A stretch of DNA of 64,000 nt, taken from assembly GCA_039028615.1 (NCBI GenBank), contig JBCCHT010000053.1:1-64000 (forward strand). The letters are read 5' to 3'. Below are positions 1 through 52,074 of this stretch, piece after piece (positions within the stretch are counted from its first letter, which is position 1; each line of letters opens with the position of its first letter). The notes under the pieces are model-generated. The model was not told the origin of the DNA, ran no database searches, and saw only the letters and a program-made list of their open reading frames with translations. A program made the translations under genes and the position numbers. The DNA is from Myxococcota bacterium. Lineage in GTDB: Bacteria > Myxococcota_A > Polyangia > Nannocystales > Nannocystaceae.

Positions 1-23
1 GGGCAGGAGGGATATCGGGGGTT

Positions 24-750
24 GGTGAGAGTTCGAACGTTGGGCTCGCCTGTTGACGGCTGGAACCCTCCCCGGACGTGCTCGGCGGCCGTGACGGCCG
101 AGTGTTTCGCGGCGGCTTTACGGGGCCGCCTCCGCGCGACCGGGCCCCCTCCATCCTACGCGGCTTCGCTTCAGCCCTCCCCGTACGGCTCCCCCCGGGC
201 GGGCGTGGGAGTGGGTCCTGCTTCTCCGGGGGCCGACGTTGCTTCGCGTTTTAGGCGGTGGTGGCTGGATGGTCGGGGGAGGGCTTCCAAGGGTTGGAGA
301 AAGTTCGAATGTTGGGCTCGCCTGTTGACGGCTGGAACCCTCCCCGGACGTGCTCGGCGGCCGTGACGGTCGAGTGTTTCGCGAAGGTTGTACGGGGCCG
401 CCTCCGCGCGACCGGGCCCCCTCCATCCTACGCGGCTTCGCTTCAGCCCTCCCCGCGCGGCTCCTCCCGTGCGGGCGACTGTGGGGTCCTGGTTGGGCGG
501 GCGGTGGCTTGCTTGCAGAATCTTGGTGAGAGTTCGAACGGAAGGCTCGCCTGTTGACGGCTGGAACCCTCCCCGGACGTGCTCGGCGGCCGTGACGGCC
601 GAGTGTTTCGCGGCGGCTGTACGGGGCCGCCTCCGCGCGACCGGGCCCCCTCCATCCTACGCGGCTTCGCTTCAGCCCTCCCCGCGCGGCTCCTCCCGTG
701 CGAGCGTGGGAGTGGGTCCTGCTTCTCCGGGGGCTGACGTTGCTTCGACG
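24..750 (+). repeat. Tandem array of 3 copies of 'element A' (~230-270 bp period)
   Basis: Near-identical block GTTCGAA..GGCTCGCCTGTTGACGGCTGGAACCCTCCCCGGACGTGCTCGGCGGCCGTGACGG..CCATCCTACGCGGCTTCGCTTCAGCCCTCCCC starts at 31, 303 and 532. Internal palindrome CGGCCGT-G-ACGGCCG. May extend left of the window. Confidence 0.95.
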
Positions 751-805: not shown

Positions 806-1540
806 GCGGCTCGATGTCCCCCGCTGCCCGCCAATTGCCGTAACCGGAGAAAGCGGAGCGCCCACGCAAACCTCAAGGGGCCGCGCCGGGGGGAGGGCCC
901 CGAACCCCGACCGAGGACTTAAGGCGGGCAGACAAACCTCTGCCCTACCCCCTTCCTCTCGCCCGACCCGCTGGGCGGGGTTTGGGAGGGACCCGTCGAC
1001 AGCAGGCCCCGTGCACCGCCGCGGCCCCATGCCTTCGAAGGCTCCGCTGGTGGTCCGCGGCTCGATGTCTCCGCTGCCTGCCGGTTGCCGTAACCGGAGA
1101 AGCGGAGCGCCCCCGCAAACCTCAAGGGGCCGCGCCGGGGGGAGGGCCCCGAACCCCGACCGAGGACTTAAGGCGGGCAGACAAACCTCTGCCCTACTCC
1201 CATCCTCTCGCCCGACCCGCAGGGCGGGGTTTGGGAGGGACCCGTCGACAGCAGGCCCCGTCCACCGCAGCGGCCCCATGCCTTCGAGGACTCCGCAGGT
1301 CGTACGCGGCTCGATGTCCCCGCTGCCCGCCGGTTGCCGTAACCGGAGAAGCGGAGCGCCCATGCAAACCTGAAGGGGCCGCGCCGGGGGGAGGGCCCCG
1401 AACCCCGACCGAGGACTTGAGGCGGGCAGACAAACCTCTGCCCTACCCCCATCCTCTCGCCCGACCCGCAGGGCGGGGTTTGGGAGGGACCCGTCGACAG
1501 CAGGCCCCGTGCACCGCAGCGGCCCATGCCTCCGAGGTCT
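806..1540 (-). repeat. Tandem array of 3 copies of 'element B' (~250 bp period) with REP-like core
   Basis: GCGGCTCGATGTC starts at ~806, ~1057 and ~1306, and the copies are near-identical. The minus strand reads GTAGGGCAGA-GGTTTG-TCTGCCC (GTAG + hairpin, e.g. 948-926). Confidence 0.95.
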
Positions 1541-11080: not shown

Positions 11081-12029
11081 ATGGCCCGGGTCCGCGCCAT
11101 GCTCCCGCCCATGCGCGAGGCGATCTCACGGCGCCAGGCCGGCCTTTTGACGTACGGCATCACGCCGCCCAAGCGCTCGTATCCCGCCGATAAACGGGCT
11201 CGGGTCGCCGACAAACAGACCGAGCGGATCAACGCCCTGCCCGTCGACGGCTTGGTGATCTACGACATCCAAGACCGATCGCACGGCGCAGGAGCGGCCC
11301 TTCCCGTTCATTCACCCCGTCGATCCGGTCGAGTATGCGTACGACGACCTGTCCCGGGTCCGTGTGCCCAAGGTGGTGTACCGCTGCGTCGGTGCACACA
11401 CCGAGGCCTCGCTGCGCGCAGGTCTGCAGCGCATCGACAGCGAAGGGGGACTGAGCGTCTTCGTCGGTGCCGCCTCGAGCACACAAGCCACCACCATGAA
11501 GCTGCCCGAGGCCCATGCTCTGCGGCAACAGCAGTTCGGTGGCCTGCCGCTGGGGGGAGTGTTGATCGCCGAGCGTCATGAAGCGCGCGGAGGCGAAGAT
11601 GCTCGAGTGCTTCGCAAGGTCGACGCGGGCTGCTCGTTCTTCGTCAGCCAGGCCGTGTACTCCGTCGTCGCCAGCAAGAACGTACTGAGCGATCTGTACT
11701 ACCGGGCCCAGGAAGCTGGTCGCCAAGTACCGCCCGTGCTCGTCACCCTGAGTCCGTGCGGATCGACCAAAACGATGGAATTCATGCGTTGGTTGGGGAT
11801 CTCGGTGCCCCGTTGGTTGGACAACGAGCTGACCCACGCCCACGACATCCTCGAGCTTTCGATCGACTTATGTGCGGACATCCTGGCGGACTTGGTGGAG
11901 TTCGCTCGGGGCAAAGGCATTCCGCTGGGGTGCAATGTCGAGAGCGTGTCGCTACGCAAGGCGGAGATCGACGCCTCGGTCGAGCTGGTGCACCGCGCTC
12001 GGGCGATCCTCGACGGCAGCATGACATAG
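11081..12029 (+). pseudogene. 5,10-methylenetetrahydrofolate reductase-like (FAD-linked) protein, frameshifted at ~11276
   Basis: The first frame gives YGITPPK..DGLVIYDIQD. After one extra base (C11276) the next frame continues DRTAQERPFPF..PKVVYRCVG..VFVGA..LGGVLIAERH..FFVSQAVY..LGCNVESVS. Could be a sequencing error. Confidence 0.75.
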
Positions 12030-12117
12030 ACATCAGTACCAAACCTATTTCGAGCGACAATCGAAGGCAGTAGCCAGGGGGCCCCTCCTCGGAGCCGCCT
12101 TGTCGCTGCCCGTCTTT

Positions 12118-13533
12118 CTACTGGGCCACACGGACCTCCTCGGCGCCCTCCCGACAAGCAAGAACCAGGGTGGAATCAAATAGGTACCGACTTCGGTCCT
12201 CGGCTCCTGCCACTATGGTCAGACTTACGTAGCCTGTTTCAGTCACCGAAAAAGCCACTGACTCACCTACCTTACCCGGTCCAAATGTAACGATCTGACC
12301 TTCGGCTTCATACCATCCGCTAATTGCCACGGCATCTCCCGTTCGAGTGAAGCCCTCCACTAGAATTAGCTCTCCGTGGCTCTGCTCGACAACAGCTACG
12401 TCTCCTTGCCGAATCGCCAACACCCGCCCTTCTCCGTCAAGAACATCCAATTCTACTGGATTCTGTCCTGAGACACGAATTACCCACTCTGGATGACAAT
12501 CTTCACGTACAGATGCTGTCACGGACTTCCAAGCTCCAGCTTTGGCTCCCTCTGGAGGTGCAGATCGCCTCTCTTCGTGCCGAGAGACAATCGTAACGTC
12601 AGGCTTGGAGTGTACGATCTCTGGCGCCCCAGCCTTGCTGAGCACACGCAGGCCCGCTTCCTGAAGCTCAGACTTGGGATTTCTCTTCAGGTATTCTCTC
12701 AGCTGCCCAACTCTTCTCGGATCTTCCATTGCCCATAGTAGAAGAGTAGTCTGAAGGTCGCCACTGGAAGCGCAACTCGCCCAGTTCTCAGCTGTCCCGG
12801 GAAGTGTATCTGAGAGTCGTCTTCGTAGCGTCAAGAGAGCCAGAGCACTCGCGCGCTCTCTCGGCATGTTGGCCACAGAAAGCCATCGCAGAATAGTCTT
12901 TGGGTCGCCATACTCAACCCAGACTTGAGCGAGAGCGACCACGGCGGGTGTCGAAGATATTGCCCAGATCTCCCTCTTTATTTCGTCGCCAACACGCTCC
13001 GCACCAGGAGATCTCACAAGAGAATGCGCCCGTAGAAGGCCATCCGCCAACCGTGCAACGGCATCATGCTCATGACACCTCACCAACTCTCGCAATGCAG
13101 CGATAAAGCCTCGCTCCCAACCTTCTCCAACGTGGTCTTCCAGCAGCCATCGAATACCATCTACTGTTGTCGCATCGCGACCCGGGTTCGGCAACACATC
13201 GGGCCAACCGCCTCTTGCGGCATCAAGAAGGTTCTGCCTTGCCACCTCGTCGCTTGACTCAATGCCGGCTTCTTCCAGAGCCTGAGCATCCATTTTACTA
13301 ATGAGATCCGAGAAGAGCCGTCGCTCTCTTTCAGGGGTCAGGGGTTCGAAAAATGCGCCAGCGGCCTCGATGTCATCGCAGTCCAGCCCACGGCGGCTCG
13401 CATCGGAGACCGCCATCTCCATGGCATCTTCGACAGTGACCTCATTCCATGCGACACGGAACCATATTGATGATGCCCAAGTCGATAGAGCTTCGTGTGC
13501 GGCAATGATCTCAGAAGCCTTGTATTCATCCAT
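12118..13533 (-). CDS. Hypothetical protein (471 aa); helical N-terminal part, beta-rich C-terminal part
   Basis: Long ORF in a low-GC region. AAGGA RBS upstream of ATG 13533. Confidence 0.75.
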   Translation of the reverse strand: MDEYKASEIIAAHEALSTWASSIWFRVAWNEVTVEDAMEMAVSDASRRGLDCDDIEAAGAFFEPLTPERERRLFSDLISKMDAQALEEAGIESSDEVARQNLLDAARGGWPDVLPNPGRDATTVDGIRWLLEDHVGEGWERGFIAALRELVRCHEHDAVARLADGLLRAHSLVRSPGAERVGDEIKREIWAISSTPAVVALAQVWVEYGDPKTILRWLSVANMPRERASALALLTLRRRLSDTLPGTAENWASCASSGDLQTTLLLWAMEDPRRVGQLREYLKRNPKSELQEAGLRVLSKAGAPEIVHSKPDVTIVSRHEERRSAPPEGAKAGAWKSVTASVREDCHPEWVIRVSGQNPVELDVLDGEGRVLAIRQGDVAVVEQSHGELILVEGFTRTGDAVAISGWYEAEGQIVTFGPGKVGESVAFSVTETGYVSLTIVAGAEDRSRYLFDSTLVLACREGAEEVRVAQ

Positions 13534-14013
13534 GGCGGTTTTCCTTTTGGCGTCCAACAAGGCTGTACGAAACAGGTTTCTTCCGTTGAAATCTGTTCAG
13601 TTTCCTTGATCGGCGGGCTCTTCGTCGACGTGAGCTTACTTCGTAAGCGTGTGTCCTCGAGCTACACGCTCGGTCTCTCGTGCACTCTTGAGGTCTCTCG
13701 GACGAAAAATCTGACTCTCGATTGGAGATTTTCTAGATCGCGCCTTTTCGGCCTCCGGTGGCCCTTTGAAGACACTTCCGCAAAATGCGCAGGTATCGAT
13801 TGGACCGAAATGTTCCTGGAAGAGATTCCCTGGCTTGATCTGAAACATTGTTCAGGGGTCATAAGGAGTCTTAGTCGGGCCTCGAAAACGAACGACGCGC
13901 AGTACCGAACGGATACCTCGCTGACCCTTTTGACCCACTAGCGCGAAACAAACCAATCAGTCACCCTCATACACTGGCCCGGCAATAGCACATGCCGGTT
14001 CTGGGACGTGACT

Positions 14014-14784
14014 ATGACCGGAGTCCAATTTCTGGATGAGAATCTGGAAAGAGCAATTTCCACACTCATTGCGTGGGTAGGATCAGAAGCGGAAGGCCAA
14101 CTCATCATTGACGGCTGGCGCCGCGAGAGAAGAATACCGAAAGAACACCGCGACAACTTCTTCTCACGTCTTCAGTTGGAGTTTAGGAAAGGGACCAACG
14201 ACCCATCGCTGTCGGTAGCGGTAGCTATACACCCTTCAGATCAACTACTTCTGAGCTGCACAAAGGAATGTACTCCACGACTCCTCGCCAACGTGGGCAC
14301 GGTGGAGAAGTTGTTAGAGCTACTTCGCAAACGTGGCCTTGAGACCGTCAGCCCCGCTGATGCACCGCGATTCTCTCGTTTCCCCAATTGGATTAAGACG
14401 GAGATACTGCATCGGCTCGGGGAAAGGTATCGAAGCACGGGCAAGAAGAAGGACATCGTCTGGTGGACGGACGACGAGATGATATGGAAAGCGGACTCAC
14501 CAGCAAGTCTCGTCGATATTCTTGGACTCTGTCCGGTAGCATACCCTCCAGGGCAGCATTTGTTCGTCACTCAATGCAGAAGCGACGACACAGGCATGCT
14601 GGCCGTCCCGACAGTGCTGGATGCTGGTTGGAACCCTAGATTCATCCCCGAAGACCCAGGTACGTCATGGGGGCGGACTCATCCTCATTCAAAAGACAAA
14701 ACCGGGCTCAAGGAGTGGGTAGGGAGGCCACCACTTACCAACAATGTCGTATTTCGCATATGGGGCAGGATCGATGGGAAGTGA
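14014..14784 (+). CDS. Hypothetical protein, possible ADP-ribosyltransferase-like fold (speculative)
   Basis: 256-aa ORF. C-terminal motifs ILGL..VPTVLDAGWNPRF..WGRT..GLKEWV. Confidence 0.7.
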   Translation: MTGVQFLDENLERAISTLIAWVGSEAEGQLIIDGWRRERRIPKEHRDNFFSRLQLEFRKGTNDPSLSVAVAIHPSDQLLLSCTKECTPRLLANVGTVEKLLELLRKRGLETVSPADAPRFSRFPNWIKTEILHRLGERYRSTGKKKDIVWWTDDEMIWKADSPASLVDILGLCPVAYPPGQHLFVTQCRSDDTGMLAVPTVLDAGWNPRFIPEDPGTSWGRTHPHSKDKTGLKEWVGRPPLTNNVVFRIWGRIDGK

Positions 14785-14974
14785 AAGCAACCTGGAATTC
14801 ATTGTAGCCCTAGGCTATGGCGCCGGACGAGTAGCTCAGCTCTTCCATGAGGCGGGTGGCGGCCGGCGTTGCAGTGAATGTTCGGAGGCTCCAGTCGGCG
14901 CAGGCTGTGGTTCGGGAGATAGGGTGGAGTTTCTGCGCAGGTGCGCCGCTGTCGTCGTGGAGCTTCCGAAATGA
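14774..14974 (+). CDS. 66-aa Cys-rich (CxxC) micro-protein, apparently translationally coupled
   Basis: ATG 14774 lies just inside the end of the upstream ORF. Its TGA overlaps the sigma-factor ATG (ATGA 14971-14974). Contains CSEC..C..C. Confidence 0.4.
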   Translation: MGSESNLEFIVALGYGAGRVAQLFHEAGGGRRCSECSEAPVGAGCGSGDRVEFLRRCAAVVVELPK

Positions 14975-15585
14975 CCGGCGCTCCTGAGTTCGATCGGGAA
15001 TTCCTAGATCGGGTTTTCCTTGGCGATCCGACTGCGTTCAAGGATTTTTATGAACGGTACAGCCCAACGGTAAGATGGGCGGTTGGGATGCGGGTGTATC
15101 GATGGCCGCAACTCGCACCTCTTCTTGACGACATTACACAGGAAGTATGGCTGCAGCTAACACGCAGGAGGTTCAAAGTTCTACGCTACTATAATGCAGC
15201 GTATGGGGCGTCGTTCTCACGGTTTCTCGCGGTCGTTTCTGCTCGGCTTGGATGGAGGATTGCCAAACGGCGCCTCGAGCACCCGGTCGAAGAAATGGGC
15301 CCCAATGATGAACTAGACAACGATGATCTCGCGTCTAGGCTAATTAACGCCGATATATTGAGCAGACTGGTGCGAATGATGAAGAACCGGCTCGAAGCTG
15401 ATGACATCCAGCTATTTACGCGTCACTTCGTAGAAGGCGAACCGCTGAAGGACATCGGGAGAGCAATGGGGATCTCGGACGACGCGGTTTACCAGAGAAA
15501 GCACCGTCTGCAGAAGAAGATTTTGTACATGGCCGATGACCTTATAGAATCTGAACTGGGTAAACCGGCGAAGACCACTTTGTAG
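14971..15585 (+). CDS. ECF (sigma-70 group IV) RNA polymerase sigma factor
   Basis: GDPTAFKDFYERY, DDITQEVW (region 2); EGEPLKDIGRAMGISDDAVYQRKHRL (region 4 HTH). Confidence 0.88.
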   Translation: MTGAPEFDREFLDRVFLGDPTAFKDFYERYSPTVRWAVGMRVYRWPQLAPLLDDITQEVWLQLTRRRFKVLRYYNAAYGASFSRFLAVVSARLGWRIAKRRLEHPVEEMGPNDELDNDDLASRLINADILSRLVRMMKNRLEADDIQLFTRHFVEGEPLKDIGRAMGISDDAVYQRKHRLQKKILYMADDLIESELGKPAKTTL

Positions 15586-26608: not shown

Positions 26609-28297
26609 TCAGGGCGCAACGGTGAAATCATGGCGGGCGAGCTCCACGTCGTCGGAGGAGAGAATACGGACGGTCCAGTCGCCGATGTACTCTTCGCGCA
26701 GCTTCAGGTGGCCGCGCGTGCGGTAGGCGTGCTTGGGCTGGACCACGATCTTGCTGCGGCGGGTCGAGCCCCCGTGCTTTTGCCACAGCAGCTGTAGTTC
26801 CTCTTTATTGCGCTGGTGCACCACGCGCACGCAGACGCTGGCCGTCTCGCGACGACTGACGGAAAACCCGTCTGCGCGGCCTTTGCAGGTGCCTCCGACC
26901 ACTTGGGAGCCCATGGCGATATTGTCGATGTGGATGCCCTTGGCGCCAACACCGCCCACGGGAGGACGGTCGGAGGGGCTCACGGGCAGGCGCATGAAGG
27001 CGGCGGCCGCCTCGGGGCTCGTGCCGGGCGGGGCTACGCGGGGCTGATCGCCCAGCGGCGGGCGGGGTTCGGATCCGCCCGTGGAGGTGCCCGACTCGGG
27101 GGGCTCGCCCGCGGTCGAGCCGTCGCCGGCTGGCGTGGGCTCGGTGGGTTCGGGCTGCACCTCGGCGGGCTTCGGATCGACCGGTCGCGGATCGGCGGGG
27201 CGGTCGACGTCCGCGGAGGCGGTCTTGGTCGGGGGCGGGGTCGGCGTTTTGGCGCCGTCGTCTCCGCCCATCGAAAAGGCGATCACCGCACCGACGGCCA
27301 GGATGCCCATGCCGATCCATCCCCACGGCGGGCCGCCCGAGTTGGCGGCGGCCGGCGGCTCGACGGAAGTCTCGACCGGTCGTGAGGCGCGGGGAGGCTC
27401 GTCGTCCTCCTTCTCGACCGCGCTCTCGTTGCTCGAGACCACGCGGAGGGCGGGGCGACTGCTCCGCTTCGACTCGGTGGAGGTGGTCTCGCTCGATTCG
27501 GCCTCGCTGTCGGTGGAGTCTTGGTCGGCGTCGCTCTTCGAGGACTCGTCCGAGGTCGTGTCTGCGTTCGACTCGCTGCCCTCGGGCTTCGCGTCGGGCT
27601 TCGCCGACTCGTCTGCCTTCGACTCGCTGTCCTCGGACTTGTCGTCGTCCTTCGCTTCAGCCGCTTCGGCTTCGCTGCCCTCGGGTTTCGCGTCGCCCTT
27701 CGCGGACTCGTCTGCCTTCGACTCGCTGTCCTCGGACTCCGCCTCGCCCTTCTCTTTGGCTTCGCGTTCCTCGGACTTGTCGTCGTCCTTCGCTTCAGCC
27801 GCTTCAGCTTCGCTGTCCTCGGACTCCGCGTCGCTCTCGTCTTTGGCTTCGCTGTCCTTGGACTCCGCGTCGGACTTCGCTTCGACCTCGCTGTCTTCGG
27901 GCTCCGCGTCGTCCTTCGCTTCGTCGGACTCGCCGCCGCTCGCCTTGGGGTCGGCGTCCGCGTCGCCTTCGCTCGACGCGTCGTCCTTCTTCTTCGGCGC
28001 ACCGAACTTCGGCGGGTCGAACACGCCCTTGGCTGCGGCCTTGCTCGCCGACCCCTTCTTACTCAGCGCAGGAGGAGCGCCGAACATCAGGCGATCCATC
28101 TCGCGCTCGGGGTCGGCGACCCGGTCTTTGCCCACGACGGTATGCCCGCTCGAGTGGGAGTGGTCCTCGGATGCCGAAGAGTCGCTGCTCTCGGCCGTAT
28201 CGGCGCCGTCGAGGAGCTCGTCCCAGGCCGTGTCGACCCGGGCTCGCTCGTCTTCGGGGGTCCGAGCGTCGTCGGACTTGCCCGTCATGGCGGCCAT
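26609..28297 (-). CDS. Membrane-anchored protein: acidic repeat-rich N-terminus, TM helix, Pro-rich linker, C-terminal DUF2914-like Ig domain
   Basis: Repeated EDSE..EAEAAEAKDDDKS units; WGWIGMGILAVGAV TM; C-terminal YRTRG..GDWTVRIL..F.V. Confidence 0.75.
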   Translation of the reverse strand: MAAMTGKSDDARTPEDERARVDTAWDELLDGADTAESSDSSASEDHSHSSGHTVVGKDRVADPEREMDRLMFGAPPALSKKGSASKAAAKGVFDPPKFGAPKKKDDASSEGDADADPKASGGESDEAKDDAEPEDSEVEAKSDAESKDSEAKDESDAESEDSEAEAAEAKDDDKSEEREAKEKGEAESEDSESKADESAKGDAKPEGSEAEAAEAKDDDKSEDSESKADESAKPDAKPEGSESNADTTSDESSKSDADQDSTDSEAESSETTSTESKRSSRPALRVVSSNESAVEKEDDEPPRASRPVETSVEPPAAANSGGPPWGWIGMGILAVGAVIAFSMGGDDGAKTPTPPPTKTASADVDRPADPRPVDPKPAEVQPEPTEPTPAGDGSTAGEPPESGTSTGGSEPRPPLGDQPRVAPPGTSPEAAAAFMRLPVSPSDRPPVGGVGAKGIHIDNIAMGSQVVGGTCKGRADGFSVSRRETASVCVRVVHQRNKEELQLLWQKHGGSTRRSKIVVQPKHAYRTRGHLKLREEYIGDWTVRILSSDDVELARHDFTVAP

Positions 28298-37377: not shown

Positions 37378-37560
37378 ATGAGCTTCGAGCGAAGACGGGC
37401 GCACCTCGTGCTCGCGCCGCCCGTTCGAGCGTCGTGAGGGTCGGATATCAGCTTCGAGCAGGGGCGAACGGCCGTCCTGCTGGCGCCGTCTGTTCGAGCG
37501 TCGCGGACGTTTCTCATGAGCTTCGAGCGGAGACGGGCGGGCGCCTGCTGACGCCCGGCC
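37378..37560 (+). repeat. Degenerate 69-bp tandem repeat (x3) leading into an element-A-like copy
   Basis: AGCTTCGAGC at 37381, 37450 and 37519. Confidence 0.8.
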
Positions 37561-38084
37561 TCCTTCCCACTCGTGCTCGTCGGGGAATTGGAGCACTGGG
37601 TGCTTGTAGCGGCGCATGAGTCCCCTCCTGCGCGCGACCGGGCCCCTGCCGTGCTGCGCGGGCCCGCCCGACCTGGGCAGCCATGCCGTCCTCGACTCCG
37701 AGCGGCCGTCCGAAAATCGACTCTGAGGCGATGGCTCCGCTCCTGACGCCTACACGACGCAGCGTCCAACTGCAACCAACGACCAGGGCAGAACAAGCCC
37801 CCGAAGCGCCACCACTCTACGCCCCAACAGCGCCCAACGACCCCGGGGCTGCAACCCACCCAAGAGCCCTTCACCGCCCCACGCCCCCCGAGCAACCACC
37901 AACCAGCGCAGCAGAGCGCACCAGAAGCCCGGAGAGATCCCGCCTTCGAGTTGCGGGGGGCACCCGCGTAGCCGGAAGGGGCCCCCGGTCGCGCGCAGGA
38001 GGGGACTATGCGCCCCTACAAGCACCCAGTGCCCCAATTCCCCGACGAGCACGTCCGGGGTAGGCGTCTGGCGTCAACAGGGCC
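37521..38084. repeat. Convergent inverted pair of element-A-like copies (37521-37660 +; 37963-38084 -), REPIN-like
   Basis: CGTGCTCGTCGGGGAATTGG.GCACTGGGTGCTTGTAG.GGCGCAT..GTCCCCTCCTGCGCGCGACCGGG on both strands. GTAG at 37606 (+) and 38019 (-), each followed by a hairpin. Confidence 0.9.
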
Positions 38085-45914: not shown

Positions 45915-46556
45915 TCAGGCGCCCGGCATCGAGTCGAGCTGGGTCACCAGCGAGGTCGGGTCGACCACCGTCAAGGTCGGCCCGCTTCGTCGCAGCTTCA
46001 CCGGGTCGTTGCGATCTTGGAACAGCACCAGGTTGTGCAGGCGGGGGAAGCCGGGGTGAAAGACCGGCCCCAGCGCGGTGGGGACCTTGATCCCGTCGCA
46101 ATCGGGCCGCTGACGGATCGCGTCGCCCAGCATCTGCGTCTGCGACGGGGCGCCCGCCGCATTGAGCCCCGTTCGCACCACCCCCGGCTGGACCAGGTCG
46201 TGCTGATCGATGCCCAGCGCGTTTCGGACCACCACGTTGGTCAGGTCCAAAAGCTTCGCGCCCACCACCTCGACCCCGCACATCAGGCGGGTAGGCGTGC
46301 CTTGGATGAGGCCGGCGAGCAGCAAGTCTTGCTCGACTTCGAAACTCGCTAGAGTTTGGGAACCGGCCAAATATAGGGTTGGTGCACTCCCGGGTGAATT
46401 GTATCGACCCCCCAAAGTACCCGCATGTTCACCGCTGAGGAACTTGGCGCGCTCGATCTGCATGAGCGCAGTGACCAGCACCGACCGATAGTAGGTCTCC
46501 GTGCCCTGCACCTCGAGTAACGGTACTCGGGCGAGTGCGCCAAGCTGAAGGCTCAT
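45915..46556 (-). CDS. RES-domain toxin (NAD+ phosphorylase / mART family)
   Basis: YYR..GGRYN..TLYLA..FE..LLDL..TQMLG..DGIKVPTA..NLVLF. Confidence 0.85.
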   Translation of the reverse strand: MSLQLGALARVPLLEVQGTETYYRSVLVTALMQIERAKFLSGEHAGTLGGRYNSPGSAPTLYLAGSQTLASFEVEQDLLLAGLIQGTPTRLMCGVEVVGAKLLDLTNVVVRNALGIDQHDLVQPGVVRTGLNAAGAPSQTQMLGDAIRQRPDCDGIKVPTALGPVFHPGFPRLHNLVLFQDRNDPVKLRRSGPTLTVVDPTSLVTQLDSMPGA

Positions 46557-46608
46557 GGACGTCGTTCGGTCCTCCGAAACGGGTGATGTGGGGCCGGACC
46601 ACCCACGC

Positions 46609-47076
46609 TCAGGCGTGGCTGGTACCGGCGGGGGCGGCCGCAAGCGGCATCTCTTCGGCGGTCATCGGCATCGGGGAGGGGGACATGCCCGCGCCTCCCA
46701 TGGCGATTGCCAACAACATGTCGATGAGCGTGCGCCCTTGCTGGTTTTGAATGACTTGCAGCGGATTCCGCCCGCCGAACGTGGGGCTGGGCGTACGAAA
46801 CCACGATTGTGCAGTTTCGGGGGAATAGCCAAAGTCGCTCAAGAGGCCGACCAGCTCGACCAACTCGTTCGCCACCCGGCGTGCGCCGTCGTGCCGAAAG
46901 AGTACCGACTCCTTGCCAAAGTTGCGGGCGACCGACTCGGTGCGTTGGCCAGTGGCCTCGGCGAACTCGGCGGGTCGCAGGTTCAACCATTGAGCGACCT
47001 CTCCCAGACGTATCTCGCCCGTCGGGGTGACGAACTTGGAGCTGTTCGCCGCGAGTCGTAGGACGAGGTCGGTCAT
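46609..47076 (-). CDS. Xre/MbcA/ParS-family antitoxin
   Basis: HTH-like N-terminus; AQSWFRTPSPTFGGRNPL toxin-binding motif; directly upstream of the RES gene. Alternative start 47112. Confidence 0.85.
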   Translation of the reverse strand: MTDLVLRLAANSSKFVTPTGEIRLGEVAQWLNLRPAEFAEATGQRTESVARNFGKESVLFRHDGARRVANELVELVGLLSDFGYSPETAQSWFRTPSPTFGGRNPLQVIQNQQGRTLIDMLLAIAMGGAGMSPSPMPMTAEEMPLAAAPAGTSHA

Positions 47077-47157
47077 GACAGTGATCGTAGAGCTCGGGTG
47101 GAGCTCGCTCAAGATGGAGTCGGCGCTGCTCGCGGGGGGCGGGCATGCGATGGGGTT

Positions 47158-47185
47158 AGTTTACGACGAGGGGTGGGCGAGTCAA
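47158..47185 (-). promoter_or_regulatory. Putative sigma-70 promoter of the TA operon
   Basis: TTGACT-N16-TAAACT on the minus strand. Confidence 0.5.
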
Positions 47186-47386
47186 AGACTAGTTGTGGGC
47201 TAGTGCTGGGAGTGGAGGTGGTGGGGTCGCTCGCGAGGTTAAGATACTGGGATCAAACGGGAATTGTGTGAAGTTGGTCGGTTGTGTGCTTTGGGGGTAA
47301 GGGGGCGCTCTGAACGCGGGGAGTGGGTTTGCTGCTCGGTTTGGATTTCTTGGGGGTGGGGTTGGGTGGTTGCGTAGGTGGTGCTT

Positions 47387-47540
47387 GTTCGAACGAACGG
47401 CTTGCCTGCTTAACGGCTGGCACCCCTCCCGCACGTGCTCGCGGCGATGTTGCATCTGGGTGCTTGTAGGAACGGGTCGTCGCCGCTGTGCGCGAGCGGG
47501 CCCCTCCCATCCTGCGCGGCTTCGCTTCAGCCCTCCCCCC
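47387..47540 (+). repeat. Diverged element-A copy
   Basis: GTTCGAACG..GCCTGCTTAACGGCTGGCACCCCTCCCGCACGTGCTCG..CTGGGTGCTTGTAG..CCATCCTGCGCGGCTTCGCTTCAGCCCTCCCC. Confidence 0.85.
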
Positions 47541-47552
47541 ACTCGGTCCCCC

Positions 47553-47765
47553 GTTCGAACGGCGTGTGCGTCCTGCTTGGGTGGCGGGCGGCTTGTTGGT
47601 TGGGGCTTCGTGCTCGGTCGAATGGCGAGTGGGTCCTGCTTGGTGGCGGGCGGCTTGTTGATCGGGGGTTGGTGCTTGTTCGAACGGCGTGTGCGTCCTG
47701 CTTGGGTGGCGGGTGGCTTGTTGGTCGGGGGTTGTTGGTTGGGGCTTGGTGTTTGTTTGAGCGGT
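47553..47765 (+). repeat. ~62-bp G/T-rich tandem repeat (x3)
   Basis: GTTCGAACGGCG..GTCCTGCTTGG.TGGCGGG.GGCTTGTTG at 47553, 47616 and 47678. Confidence 0.8.
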
Positions 47766-48043
47766 GAACGAACTCGGTGTGTTGACGATGGGGGTCGTCG
47801 TCGCTGCTCGAGTTGGGGACCTTCTATCCCTGCGCGGGTCGGTTCTGTTCTGCGTCCGCGGGGAGTTCGAGTGCTCGAGATCACTGGTTGGGGTGGGAGC
47901 GTTTGTTGAGAGGCAGGGGGTTTTCGAGGGAGCGAGGGTGGGAGTGCGGGGATCTACTCTAGTGGGGTGGGAAGGATCCCCTGTTGATTTCGGGCTCGAA
48001 GTACCCTGATGGAATTGGCGTTTGTCCCCTAAGGTGGTGGAGC

Positions 48044-49042
48044 ATGCGTAGTTACGCCCTCGGTTCGATCCCCGTACTGCTCGCCCTGACCACTCTTTCT
48101 CAGCCGGCCCATGCGGCCTCCGAACCGAGCCCCCCGCCGGAACCCGAACTTGCGCCGATTGCCGTTGATGTTGCCCCGGTGGAGTCGAACGCCGAAGGGG
48201 AGCTCGAGGCGGGATTGGACGCCGATGTGGTCGCCGACGCTGAAGTGATGGTGGAGGAAGAGGGGCCGTCGGAGGAGGCCGTGGTGGCAGAGGCAGAGGA
48301 ATCGGCGTCGGTTGGTCCGTCGGCGGAGGTGTCGCCATCGACGGAGGCTCCGGTCGTCGTTCCGCCGGTCTTGTCTCCGCCCGCGCCTACGTGGGGGCCG
48401 GTTCGGCCGACCCCTCCGCCGCCGCCGGATCCGGCTCGTACGGATCGAACCATGCGGAAGTTCCGACGTGGTGGCATCGGGATTCTGGCGGTGGGCGGGG
48501 CTGGATTGGCGCTCACGGCGGGTCTGCAGGCGGGTCGTGGGGCGGCGCTCAAACGTTGCGCGCGCACTGGCGATCCACTGTCCGATGCCTGTGTCACCTC
48601 GGACGTGCTCGAGCGTGAACTGTCGACCTACGGCGCCCTCGGCCTCGCTGCTCTCGTCACGGGCAGCGCGGGCGCGGGCGTCATGTTCGGCAACGCGGCA
48701 GCCACCCGCGACGTCGAACGCCACGGCTCCCTCCGTTCCCGCAGCGCCGCCCGGTTCGCCGGCATCATCGCCATCGGAGTCGCCTCCTCCGTCCTGCTCG
48801 GCACCAACATCCACTTCGGCCGCGCCGAAGCCCGCTGCGAAGGCGACCCCAACTGCATCGCCCGCCAACGCCCCCTTCGCTGGATCGCCAACGACGGCGC
48901 CGCCCTGGGCCTCGCCGCCGGAGCCGGCCTCCTCGGCTACTCCATCGCCTACGACAAACAAGGCAAAGCCCTCATGAAACTCCGCGCCGCCCCGACCATG
49001 ACCCCCCAACAAGCCGGCCTCTCCGTAACCGTAGCCTTCTAA
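48044..49042 (+). CDS. Hypothetical exported protein with Gly-rich helices, Cys pairs and C-terminal beta-signal-like end
   Basis: Signal peptide (..PAHA); acidic/Pro linker; ends AAPTMTPQQAGLSVTVAF. Confidence 0.8.
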   Translation: MRSYALGSIPVLLALTTLSQPAHAASEPSPPPEPELAPIAVDVAPVESNAEGELEAGLDADVVADAEVMVEEEGPSEEAVVAEAEESASVGPSAEVSPSTEAPVVVPPVLSPPAPTWGPVRPTPPPPPDPARTDRTMRKFRRGGIGILAVGGAGLALTAGLQAGRGAALKRCARTGDPLSDACVTSDVLERELSTYGALGLAALVTGSAGAGVMFGNAAATRDVERHGSLRSRSAARFAGIIAIGVASSVLLGTNIHFGRAEARCEGDPNCIARQRPLRWIANDGAALGLAAGAGLLGYSIAYDKQGKALMKLRAAPTMTPQQAGLSVTVAF

Positions 49043-49189
49043 CCTCCCACCCCACGAGCCCTCACCCACCGTCGACCAACCTCGAACGCTCCAAGTGAGG
49101 GCTCACCCCGCCCCCTCTCCCAAACGCTGGCGGCTCAACCAAACCCCATACACTCGAGCCGCCAGCGACCCCCTCTCTGCTTCATCAAC

Positions 49190-49505
49190 TACCGTAGCCG
49201 AACGAGCGCCCGCTCCCCCCACCGCCAACTGCCGTAGCGAACCAGCGATCGCTCCCCGCACCACCAACTTGCCGTAGCCAACGAGCGATAGCTCCCGCAC
49301 CACCAAACTGCCATAGCGAACCAGCGCCTGCTCCCCGGCAACGGCGAATACCGTAGGCGAACGAGCGCCGCTCCCTGCCCCAACCTCCGCCGTCCGCCAA
49401 CTGCCGTAAGCGAACGAGCGCCAACTCCCCGCCTCGCCGACTGCGGTCAGCCAACGAGCGACCGCTGCCCGCCGATTGCCGTAAGCGAACGAGCGCCAGC
49501 TCCCC
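49190..49505. repeat. About 8 degenerate ~40-bp tandem units
   Basis: Recurrent (A/G)CCGTA(G/A)C.AAC.AGCG..GCTCCC motif, resembling the TGCCGTAACC..GAGCGCC end of element B. Confidence 0.8.
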
Positions 49506-49515
49506 CGCCCAGCAA

Positions 49516-49665
49516 AAGGGGCCGCGCCGGGGGGAGGGCCCCGAACCCCGACCGAGGACTTAAGGCGGGCAGAAATACCTACGCCCTACTCCAACCGCCA
49601 CGCCCGACCCGCAGGGCGGGGTTTGGGAGGGACCCGTCGACAGCAGGCCCCGTGCACCGCAGCGG
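49516..49665 (-). repeat. Element-B copy
   Basis: AAGGGGCCGCGCCGGGGGGAGGGCCCCGAACCCCGACCGAGGACTTAAGGCGGGCAGA..GGGAGGGACCCGTCGACAGCAGGCCCCGTGCACCGC, near-identical to the copies at 806-1540. Confidence 0.95.
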
Positions 49666-49749
49666 GCGCCTGCCACCGAACACCCCCAGCAGACCCCCCG
49701 AGCACCCCCCGACACCGCTCAACTCACCCCACGAAGCCCGCAATTCGAC

Positions 49750-52074
49750 TCACCCCGCCCCAGCCACCGCCTCAATCCGAGCCGGCACACTCTTATGCCA
49801 AGGCGTCCCCGCAATCGGATCCCGATCCTCCGCCCGAGTGAGCTCATTCGTCGACAACCCCCGCGGCGCCGCCCCAGCATCCGGCCCGTCATAGTCGAGC
49901 CCATACCCATTGGGCAGCGACACATGCCCCGGCCGCATCATCTCCGTGACCTCGACCGACACCACCCCCTCCCCACGCCGCGTGGTGAGCCGAGCGAAGT
50001 CCCCCGTCGACAGCCCGAGCGCTTCGGCATCCGCTGCGCACATCCGCAGCGCCGCCCCCTTGGCCTTGGGCCGCGCCTTGGGATTCCGAACGATCGTGTT
50101 GGTCGTCTCGGAGCGCCGCTCCCCCGCCGAGAGCACGAAGGGATAGTCCGGCTCCGGCTCCGGCCGCTCGTAGGAGAGCCGAACGAGATCGGCAAAGAGC
50201 TCGGGAATGGCGAGCTGAATGCGATTGCCCGGCCGACGCAGGCGCGTCCAACCATCCTCGTAGTTCTTCATCGACGCATAGACGACCCCCGAGGGCTGAC
50301 CGAGGATGTCGTCGAAGAGCCGCTCGCCGATGGCCAGCGCGGGACCGCGGTACCCGGCCTGCTGAGCCGCTTCGGTCTCCCCTTGGGCATACAGGTGGCT
50401 CAAGGCCCACACCACGGCGCCTTCACGAAGCTCGGGCGGCAACGAGGGCCCTAGACCCCGGTAGATCAGCACGGGCAGGTAGTCGAACCAATTGGAGTGC
50501 CGCGCGAGCAGAGCACCGATGGCCGCCGCGAGGGCAGGGCGACCGAGCTTGGCCGCAGCCTGCAGGGTCTTGATGTGCCGCGGCTTGATCCCGACGAGGC
50601 GACTGACCAACCGCGAGTGAATCTCGGCCTCGGGCAAGGTGCCCGGCAGCGCGTCCATGAGCGCGGGGCGGAGCTGGAAGACGTTGTCCGGGAACTCGAG
50701 GTTGAAGAAGGTGCACTCGGTCTTCTCGAACTGACTCGCCGCCGGGAGCACGTATTCGGCACAGCGCGCGGTCTCAGTCATGGCGACGTCGATGACCACG
50801 GAGAGCTCGAGGGCGGCCATCGCCTCGCGCATCTGGGGACTGTCGGCGACGGAGTGCACCGGGTTGCCGCTCTCGATGAGCATCGCGCGGAAGCGGTCGG
50901 GGTGATCGGTGAGGATCTCCTCGGCCATCACGTTGCACGGCATCAAGCCGATGATGATCTTGGAATCGGTGACGGGGGTAGTGCGCCGCCGTCGAGGGCG
51001 ATCGGGATCGGGTCCGCCCCCGGGGCGCACGTCCCCTTTGCTCGCCCGCGCCAGCGACAAGAAGGGCACGAACGCGTTGTTGCTGCCCTTGGTCCCGAAG
51101 TGCCCGGTGAGGGTCCAGCTCAGGCGCTGCAGGTACGAGCCGAGCGTGGAGTGTCGGTTCATCTGCATGCCGAGATCTTCGAAGACCGAGGCGCTGCCGG
51201 CCTCCGCGAGCCAGCGTGCGACCTGGTGCAGCTGCGCCTCGGGGACCTCGCAGACGGCCGCACAGTGGGCGATGTCGACCTGCTCGAGGATCGGCTCCAC
51301 CAGGTCGATGCCCTGCGTGTGCTCGTCGACCCACGGCCGCTTGACCCACCCGCCCTGCACGACGGCGGCGGCAATGCCCGCCAGGCACCACGCGTCGGTG
51401 CCCGGCTTGAGCTGCAGGTGCAGGTCGGCCATGGCCGCGGTCTCGCTGACCCGCGGATCGATGACCACCATCTTGCGCTTCGGGTCCTTCTGGATCTCCT
51501 TGAGCACGATCCGCGCCCGCGCGAAGCCGTGCGACTGCCACGGGTTCTTGCCGATGAAGATCGACAGCTCCGCGTGTTCGAAGTCGCCGTGGACGCCCGC
51601 GCCGAGCATGCGGCCGTTGACCCAGAACTCACCCGTCTTCTCCTGGGCCAGCGCGTTGGACCGATACTTCACGCCCAGCGCCTTGAGCGTCGCATCACCG
51701 TAGGCCCCACCGAGATGGTTTCCCTGCCCGCCGCCGCCGTAGTAGAGGATCTTGTCGCCGCCGTACTTGGACTGGATCGCCTCGAAGCGCGTCGCGATCT
51801 CCTCGATGGCAGTGTCCCAGTCGATCTCCTCGTAGCTGCCGTCGGGACGCCGCCGCAGCGGGCTGGTGATGCGATCTTTGGCCGTCTGATAGGCGTTGAG
51901 CCGCTTCGGCTTCTCGCACAGGTAGCCCTTCGACTCGGGGTGCGCCTTGTCGCCGCGGACCCGGACCAGCTCGCGTCCGCCCTCACCCCCGAGCTGAACC
52001 TCGAGCCCGCAGTTGAGGCTGCAAAAGATGCACGCCGTCTTCTTCCACTCGCCCTCGTTCGTTCGTGCGTTCAT
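49750..52074 (-). CDS. Molybdopterin-dependent oxidoreductase (DMSO reductase superfamily)
   Basis: CIFCSLNCG..GYLCEK [4Fe-4S] motif; VIDPRVSETA; LKPGTDAW; GNPVHS; ETARCAEYVLPA. Confidence 0.93.
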   Translation of the reverse strand: MNARTNEGEWKKTACIFCSLNCGLEVQLGGEGGRELVRVRGDKAHPESKGYLCEKPKRLNAYQTAKDRITSPLRRRPDGSYEEIDWDTAIEEIATRFEAIQSKYGGDKILYYGGGGQGNHLGGAYGDATLKALGVKYRSNALAQEKTGEFWVNGRMLGAGVHGDFEHAELSIFIGKNPWQSHGFARARIVLKEIQKDPKRKMVVIDPRVSETAAMADLHLQLKPGTDAWCLAGIAAAVVQGGWVKRPWVDEHTQGIDLVEPILEQVDIAHCAAVCEVPEAQLHQVARWLAEAGSASVFEDLGMQMNRHSTLGSYLQRLSWTLTGHFGTKGSNNAFVPFLSLARASKGDVRPGGGPDPDRPRRRRTTPVTDSKIIIGLMPCNVMAEEILTDHPDRFRAMLIESGNPVHSVADSPQMREAMAALELSVVIDVAMTETARCAEYVLPAASQFEKTECTFFNLEFPDNVFQLRPALMDALPGTLPEAEIHSRLVSRLVGIKPRHIKTLQAAAKLGRPALAAAIGALLARHSNWFDYLPVLIYRGLGPSLPPELREGAVVWALSHLYAQGETEAAQQAGYRGPALAIGERLFDDILGQPSGVVYASMKNYEDGWTRLRRPGNRIQLAIPELFADLVRLSYERPEPEPDYPFVLSAGERRSETTNTIVRNPKARPKAKGAALRMCAADAEALGLSTGDFARLTTRRGEGVVSVEVTEMMRPGHVSLPNGYGLDYDGPDAGAAPRGLSTNELTRAEDRDPIAGTPWHKSVPARIEAVAGAG

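Follow-up and report, generated by a model that had tools for sequence, protein, structure and literature searches.

Halos of strand-specific base composition around oriented hairpin repeats in a marine Myxococcota bacterium

INTRODUCTION

A DNA strand that spends time unpaired during replication or transcription gains G and T, and strand-coordinated mutation clusters of the kataegis type occur at resected breaks. Local asymmetries are also known from GRINS, patches of about 1 kb with correlated GC and TA skews that are strongest at third codon positions and switch abruptly within 1 kb in working genes; the accessible text of that report gives the mechanism as unknown and also mentions single-copy skewed regions (PMC8256042). 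In the published literature, how such intense local skews that recode genes originate is still debated as open. Structured repeats outside genes, placed at gene 3' ends and partly in tandem clusters, are in turn described for REP/REPIN-RAYT systems in the accessible parts of three papers (PMC3116915, PMC8266576, PMC6006769). Here we describe a 64,000-nucleotide stretch (the window; contig C53) from the genome of a marine Myxococcota bacterium (G000; 12.27 Mb, 94 contigs, 96.7% complete), in which a gene at 48044-49042 lies between two hairpin elements of opposite orientation and changes its codon usage halfway. The original prediction, made from the letters of this window, attributed that change to mutagenesis directed by the elements. 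The pattern is real, genome-wide and shared within the bacterial family, and it amounts to a new form of GRINS-like recoding with a defined anchor.

RESULTS

Codon usage switches inside a gene between two opposed elements

The original prediction rested on hand counts of a G/T-rich top strand near the + element and an A/C-rich one near the - element, and both counts are exact, with 46/60 G+T (29 G, 17 T) at 47281-47340 and 49/60 A+C (14 A, 35 C) at 49681-49740. The two elements belong to different families, A (+) and B (-), and the region is laid out as follows.

47150-47378 (+): upstream halo of element A, intergenic; top strand G/T-rich, GC skew +0.61, TA skew +0.30
47379-47563 (+): family A hairpin element, about 185 bp
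47553-47780 (+): degenerate G/T-rich direct repeats of about 62 nt (families D10, D12) beside A, within its downstream halo
48044-49042 (+): 332-aa gene with orthologs in four congeners; G/T-ending codons to about 48628 (downstream halo of A), then C/A-ending codons (downstream halo of B)
49175-49505 (-): degenerate repeats of about 40 nt (families D7, D14, D15) downstream of B; top strand C/A-rich
49495-49679 (-): family B hairpin element
49680-50100 (-): upstream halo of B, over the 3' end of a molybdopterin oxidoreductase gene (49750-52074, -)

The reading frame of the 332-aa gene, which has no Pfam match, is open throughout, and its codon switch, first noted near 48600, falls at 48628, with G or T at 97/142 four-fold sites before this change point and at 12/96 after it. 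It is the strongest change point among the 3325 genes of 250-450 aa in this genome (from 8875 genes called with our own amino-acid-level open reading frame scorer), and an element is nearby for 19 of the top 30 change points, compared with 82 of all 3325. Two-fold codons turn with it: AAA/AAG, CAA/CAG and GAA/GAG stand at 1/1, 0/2 and 7/11 before the switch and at 3/0, 4/0 and 4/1 after it. Between A and the gene (47564-48043) the GC and TA skews are +0.41 and +0.51, and between the gene and B (49043-49494) they are -0.36 and -0.31. The mid-gene switch is the meeting point of the downstream halos of the + element A and the - element B. On the far side of B, the last ~75 codons of the oxidoreductase gene mirror the effect, with four-fold G at 0.80 and C at 0.10, against about 0.4 and 0.5 in mid-gene.

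Three dispersed families of hairpin elements

Families A, B and C are dispersed hairpin repeats of about 190 bp (units of 150-190 bp), with 136 matches in 100 clusters: 101 nhmmer matches for A, which include fragments and a diverged subfamily A', 15 for B and 20 for C. A and C have inner motifs in common by eye, and B was not found in the 24 relatives searched. Seventeen A/A' rows fold into a single long irregular hairpin with 93.5% of cells paired, against 38-58% in slid controls, a figure that is not a probability because the rows are related. Nine of 21 pairs have changed on both sides, and a U.G pair present in 15 of the 17 rows counts as a standard pair on the G/T-rich strand but not on the other. 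It points to the strand opposite the GTAG that the A and A' consensus carries at the foot of the outer stem, on the C/A-rich strand; this motif is inconsistent in B and C. Element structure is conserved across congeners. Rfam at gathering score gave no match in the window, and within 47200-49900 there was one chance match (E 0.75).

A co-oriented gene precedes the element in 67 of the 80 elements with gene calls on both sides. Neighbouring elements within 3 kb are convergent (30 pairs) or tandem (36) and never divergent. In doublets the arms are 0.13-2.7 kb apart, and the partner arm is the best match in 16/23 cases for A and 7/7 for C, so the arms look homogenised. The genes between paired arms include none that is shared; 15 scanned proteins (13 at element loci) belong to unrelated families.

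The sign of the skew follows element orientation across the genome

We analysed skew against distance from oriented elements by regression on synonymous sites, taking values for subgroups (gene direction, replichore, family) from joint fits that include partner elements. The sign of the skew follows element orientation genome-wide, as had been predicted: the skew upstream of an element, read on its strand, is positive at 84 of the 94 clusters with data (sign test p=1e-15), and it exceeds 0.15 at 58/94, compared with 1.3% of 2129 element-free gene ends. It rises over the last 800 bp before the element (+0.05, +0.15, +0.29, +0.34), starts at +0.23 downstream, falls to +0.10 at 1.2-1.5 kb and is about 0 past 2.5 kb. 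The halo therefore reaches about 0.8 kb upstream and about 1.5-2 kb downstream; the skew is indeed tied to orientation, but the range of about 1 kb given in the original prediction is too short for the downstream side. The sign does not change between sense and antisense genes or between the replichores, and the peak is about ten times the contig (replichore) background of about 0.03 either way. Background genes have no gene-end codon effect.

Near elements C and A fall and G and T rise, so that four-fold sites hold C 0.16, G 0.71, T 0.12 and A 0.01, against background values of C 0.50 and G 0.39. The G/C and T/A ratios both go up about 4.5-fold with GC content nearly unchanged. The original prediction named C->T and A->G changes; both C and A are lost, but the main four-fold shift is from C to G, not to T. 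At two-fold sites T and G are up in every next-base context, the loss of C has no CT/TC preference, and amino-acid composition shifts little. No deaminase motif and no erosion of RAYT sites was seen.

Halos postdate the elements and strengthen with age

The switch was expected to be missing from orthologs that lack flanking elements, and it is: each half of the gene has 36-48% G/T in four orthologs, and their loci have no A, B or C match. A second gene, trpS, which lies beside a RAYT-like locus described below, shows the direction of change. Its 3' half carries 21 synonymous changes private to G000, of which 11 are C>T and 10 are C>G. Four congeners have 0, 1, 2 and 0, and the 7 private amino-acid changes of G000 are not raised against their 12, 3, 11 and 4.

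Halos are weaker where an element more closely resembles its nearest copy elsewhere (rho=-0.38, p=0.014, n=41 clusters); they grow with element age. Among congeners, halos are positive in 8/10 cases in G004 (mean 0.23), 11/15 in G002 (0.10) and 4/4 in G001 (0.14), counts drawn from 30 of 50 model matches, and family C halos are positive in 16/18 rows (G002, G004, G005). The element model matches 6 of 60 genomes of the family. In G023, near-identical arms with the hairpin bound a unit of about 1.3 kb with CTAG at its ends (at least 40 arm matches), which holds an IS1380-type transposase fragment (PF13701, below the curated cut-off; e.g., L320, L333). These young arms have upstream means of 0.02 and 0.00 (27 and 22 partly overlapping matches), and the host flanks average -0.013 (n=16). 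Diverged copies in G066, of the same genus, average 0.32 with 7/7 positive. In duplicated flanks, recent A>G changes (14/349) exceed T>C (9/1383; p 2e-5), and C>G stands at 15 against 8 G>C (p=0.10), on few and pseudo-replicated events. Taken together, the elements are surrounded by an oriented, two-sided, context-free G/T shift of a single strand; it is younger than the element and spares the protein.

Other halo centres

Halos also surround sites of other kinds. A cluster of four sites (C18:17250-20550, L017), whose motif we take to be parS, lies 11 kb from dnaA at the centre of convergent G/T and C/A halos, the strand that runs toward the site being the G/T-rich one; the genes on either side are both directed at it, and rsmG is recoded. 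The exact parS motif occurs in 9/41 genomes. Besides G000, the halo is found in G004, G005 and G017, is mild in G027 and is absent in G025, G030, G036 and G039. Convergent parS halos thus occur in 4/4 family genomes, while among Rho-bearing relatives they are mild in 1/5 and absent in 4/5.

Two RAYT-like HUH genes in G000, 66% identical (C13:40464-41393, L003; C8:231440-232330, L015), each stand between arrays of short inverted repeats whose convergent halos are strong, and trpS is recoded beside the first. Little halo surrounds the RAYT loci in G003 and G005. The repeats flanking the RAYT genes differ from A, B and C and lie on the G/T strand, opposite to the GTAG of A.

Some tRNA genes also have halos. 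A tRNA-Ser followed by an extra hairpin (G000:C11:155697-155787, L018) has a two-sided halo like that of element A, and three other tRNAs have upstream-only halos. Two strong peaks lie inside long genes (C31:71543-72914 and C1:667178-668272), where no element or duplication was found. The genome-wide z-track is over-dispersed (SD about 2), and weaker peaks were left out of the analysis.

Candidate enzymes and the probable loss of Rho

Searches found no cognate nuclease for the elements. The A, B and C models have no match at either RAYT locus of G000, though another RAYT gene could be hidden at contig ends. A RAYT query found nothing in G001, G002 or G004, although G002 and G004 have elements and halos, and Y1_Tnp found nothing in G004 (88% complete). 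DUF559 was not found, and there were three GIY-YIG matches. The single retron-type reverse transcriptase of G000 (C16:158387-162022, L030), beside small genes that are presumably WGR-like, has no A, B or C match at its locus. Repair loss was rejected as a cause, with MutL, RNase H and UDG present in 6/6 genomes of the genus.

Rho was looked for as well. PF07497 is found in 0/6 genus genomes, and TIGR00767 scores above cut-off in 0/25 genomes of the family (f1, G000-G024) and in 12/16 other genomes of the class. The Rho of a relative, used as query in G000, gave only a 27% ATPase-type match. Rho has probably been lost family-wide.

Scope of the searches

Congeners searched included G001, G002, G004 and G005; TrpS of congeners is 74-77% identical. 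The stretch occurs in a marine metagenome run, and no RNA run is listed for it. No relatives were near enough for a mutation spectrum, the best of 80 metagenome loci being 52-68% identical. Named sequence records with the element are mostly labelled Myxococcota or Myxococcales. Pattern scans gave at least 97 genome-contig stretches (80 with flanks) and 8 viral-contig stretches, almost all chance matches; four of these loci matched the A model at E<0.001, may overlap the searched genomes and are not used as support. A distant match to the element core (L110:2474-2575) lies among REP-like palindromes behind gyrA, on a contig labelled Patescibacteria, and has no halo. An assembly artefact was rejected, with reading frames open and 8 contig pieces among the listed matches of run X1 identical to the window; X1 is not an independent check because it may be the assembly source. 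These 8 pieces have no polymorphism.

Other features of the window

Further elements lie elsewhere in the window.

21-714 (+): three tandem family A copies (21-212, 293-483, 523-714)
845-1535 (-): three tandem family B copies (845-1038, 1094-1287, 1343-1535), converging on the A copies
37520-38081: convergent A' pair, 37520-37661 (+) and 37964-38081 (-)

The - copy of the A' pair has a top-strand C/A-rich halo on both sides, and the + copy has no halo of its own. RES-domain and Xre/MbcA genes at 45915-47112, transcribed away from element A, are probably a toxin-antitoxin pair. Degenerate tandem repeats of 39-51 nt with strong AT skew occur at 27522-27989, and a low-GC (52-58%) island at 12000-15500.

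DISCUSSION

We regard it as likely that the halo is a mutational footprint left once the hairpin has arrived, since the switch is missing from orthologs without elements, halos are weaker at recently copied loci and a young expansion in a relative has none. As to the cause, our best guess, which we offer tentatively, is an R-loop held at the hairpin that leaves the element strand unpaired. Read-through and antisense RNA may go unterminated because the family apparently lacks Rho, and the hairpin, in RNA or in the displaced DNA strand, would hold the R-loop open, extending back behind the element and forward with the polymerase. On the element strand (+ sense), repeatedly left unpaired, C>T and A>G changes would accumulate, and the strong four-fold GC preference of the genome could turn many T into G. 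A palindromic roadblock such as ParB on parS might stall polymerases from both sides and give convergent halos. Such a model would cover the polar halos, the convergent parS halos, the placement at 3' ends and the missing Rho, and it would make the halo a by-product rather than a diversification device. In keeping with the model, element-free halos favour the sense strand (44 vs 24, p=0.02). Loss of Rho raises R-loops in other bacteria, according to the accessible text of one study (PMC11551753).

A number of results weigh against this account. Upstream halos are equally strong where the upstream gene is antisense (10 clusters vs 54, p=0.70), so antisense transcription must be assumed. RNase H, as noted, is present, and the folding energy of family A favours neither strand. 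Duplicated flanks have no C>T excess (12 vs 20 G>A) and element cores have no mutational asymmetry, both on small, pseudo-replicated counts; with its A>G excess, the flank spectrum fits neither an R-loop nor a nick/gap model cleanly. A weak zone of reverse polarity (about -0.04) lies 1-3 kb upstream in all four gene/replichore classes, with regression values of -0.03 to -0.05 at -2.6 to -1 kb. Ten of the 94 clusters lack a positive upstream skew, halos that are strong for A, A' and C are weak on average for B, and copies in G072 have none (2 informative of 3 rows). Only 4 of 87 tRNA and transfer-messenger RNA (tmRNA) calls have an upstream skew of at least 0.25, and the 96 most stable of 1852 generic 3' hairpins have no halo; untranslated RNA alone is therefore insufficient. 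The contrast in parS halos between genomes with and without Rho is confounded by kinship, because it sets one clade against others.

Two other candidates were rejected: high transcription alone, on the tRNA and tmRNA skews, and any repeat or strong hairpin, as a 10-copy palindromic family, two smaller repeat families, coding repeats and generic hairpins have no halo.

The halo could also arise at the DNA level, if a nuclease, either of HUH/RAYT type or a structure-specific one of the host, cut the hairpin, the C/A-rich strand were excised on both sides and the unpaired G/T template were deaminated. We think this reading, the first candidate of the original prediction, unlikely, albeit worth serious attention. 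It needs no transcription, in keeping with halos that are independent of gene direction and replichore; the accessible text describes TnpA-REP cutting REP substrates, when single-stranded, on the 5' or the 3' side of the hairpin (PMC8266576), GTAG at the outer-stem foot of A and A' lies on the C/A-rich strand, and both RAYT loci of G000 have convergent halos. Yet paired elements have no gene in common, RAYT and Y1_Tnp queries came back empty in the congeners named above, the RAYT-flanking repeats are unlike A, B and C and lie on the strand opposite the GTAG of A, little halo surrounds the RAYT loci in G003 and G005, no CT/CA-specific loss is seen, and the parS halos would go unexplained. The original proposal of element-directed mutagenesis by nicking at the REP core is not supported: no cognate nuclease was found, and the RAYT genes are flanked by other repeats. 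Nor is a dedicated mutagenesis system supported, because no cognate enzyme and no dinucleotide preference were found, trpS protein change is not raised, and halos also occur at parS and the RAYT arrays. It is doubtful, in the same vein, that the hairpins are oriented cis-acting mutator sites at which a dedicated protein or RNA-primed process opens or re-synthesises one strand over about 2.5 kb per copy, raising the local mutation rate many-fold by the same process that creates GRINS. Error-prone resynthesis, in which the G/T strand is re-made from a nick or primer at the element and G.T wobble and G.G or T.T errors escape mismatch repair to leave C>T, A>G, C>G and A>T on the new strand, is rather improbable. 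The parallel 4.5-fold rises at nearly constant GC content agree with it, as do the longer downstream reach expected of 5'-3' synthesis, the six-fold excess of A>G over T>C in flanks with the 15 to 8 ratio of C>G to G>C, and tautomer errors of like kind proposed for GRINS in the accessible text (PMC8256042); MutL is present, however, the cores that synthesis must cross show no asymmetry, and no primer or nick source was identified.

Two further readings were weighed. If selection acted on base composition, keeping flanks free of competing pairing or tuning RNA decay or termination, conserved element structure and placement at gene 3' ends would follow, but the effect spans 2-3 kb, covers antisense genes equally and appears at parS, young copies persist without halos, and selection on Rho sites is excluded if Rho is absent; we give this little credence. 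Least of all do we favour reverse causation, with skewed patches arising otherwise, in a GRINS-like manner, and elements inserting or surviving there in matching orientation. Two findings speak for it and also against a footprint: 49 of 104 strong skew peaks have no A, B or C element within 2.5 kb, and the 3' half of a paralog of the window gene is C-rich (21/94 G/T) with no element found nearby. However, remnants of elements, fragments at contig ends, RAYT arrays or parS lie in several of the element-free peaks, halos become stronger with divergence, and the young insertion sites in G023 are unskewed, though copies there travel inside the IS1380-like unit.

Whichever cause applies, the question of where such skews originate becomes testable, because the skew here is tied to a defined anchor, obeys a rule of sign, extends over a measured range and varies with age, and natural negative controls exist. 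Should R-loops be responsible, synonymous sites would be a fossil map of R-loops in Rho-less bacteria. The halos also distort inferences on codon usage, synonymous divergence (dS) and horizontal transfer for genes near repeats and parS.

Comparison with known systems

Our literature search, for which subscription papers were mostly out of reach, found no description of element-anchored halos. Ordinary replication and transcription asymmetry has the same direction as the halo, but the halo is local, exceeds the replichore skew about tenfold and depends on neither the replichore nor the direction of the gene. At parS and the RAYT arrays the convergent pattern has the polarity of 3' single-stranded tails, as in kataegis, but single elements have one polarity on both sides and no deaminase sequence motif. 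Mutagenesis by a reverse transcriptase of the retron or diversity-generating retroelement type was rejected, as the reverse transcriptase locus has no element sequence and C is lost as much as A, rather than adenine only.

Like REP and REPIN sequences, the elements are extragenic, repeated and hairpin-forming, lie at gene 3' ends and in tandem clusters, and form inverted doublets with co-evolving arms that are each other's closest match, as in the accessible description of REPINs (PMC3116915). REP sequences have a GT[AG]G tetranucleotide 5' of the hairpin on the folded strand; in A and A' a GTAG adjoins the stem on the C/A-rich strand, while the conserved U.G pair points to the G/T strand. The elements differ in being irregular hairpins of 150-190 bp with arms 0.13-2.7 kb apart, and no cognate RAYT flanked by them was found in G000. 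The accessible text of the REP/REPIN papers (PMC3116915, PMC8266576, PMC6006769) describes no compositional halo.

GRINS are the closest parallel, sharing the scale, the correlated skews, the third-position bias and the abrupt switch within working genes. Both halves of the region reach the GRINS skew threshold, at 0.28/0.36 for 47150-48600 and 0.31/0.27 for 48601-50000. GRINS are, however, duplicated coding regions (>80% identity, >500 bp), mostly in polyketide synthase (PKS) clusters, according to the accessible text (PMC8256042), whereas the best other match of the window gene is 72% over 383 bp and that of the oxidoreductase end 66%, and trpS and rsmG are single copy. With no duplicated skewed coding copies between which gene conversion could act, as in GRINS, it is the element arms alone that look homogenised. 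The accessible text on GRINS gives no anchoring element or orientation rule (PMC8256042); here an oriented non-coding hairpin sets both the sign and the range of the skew.

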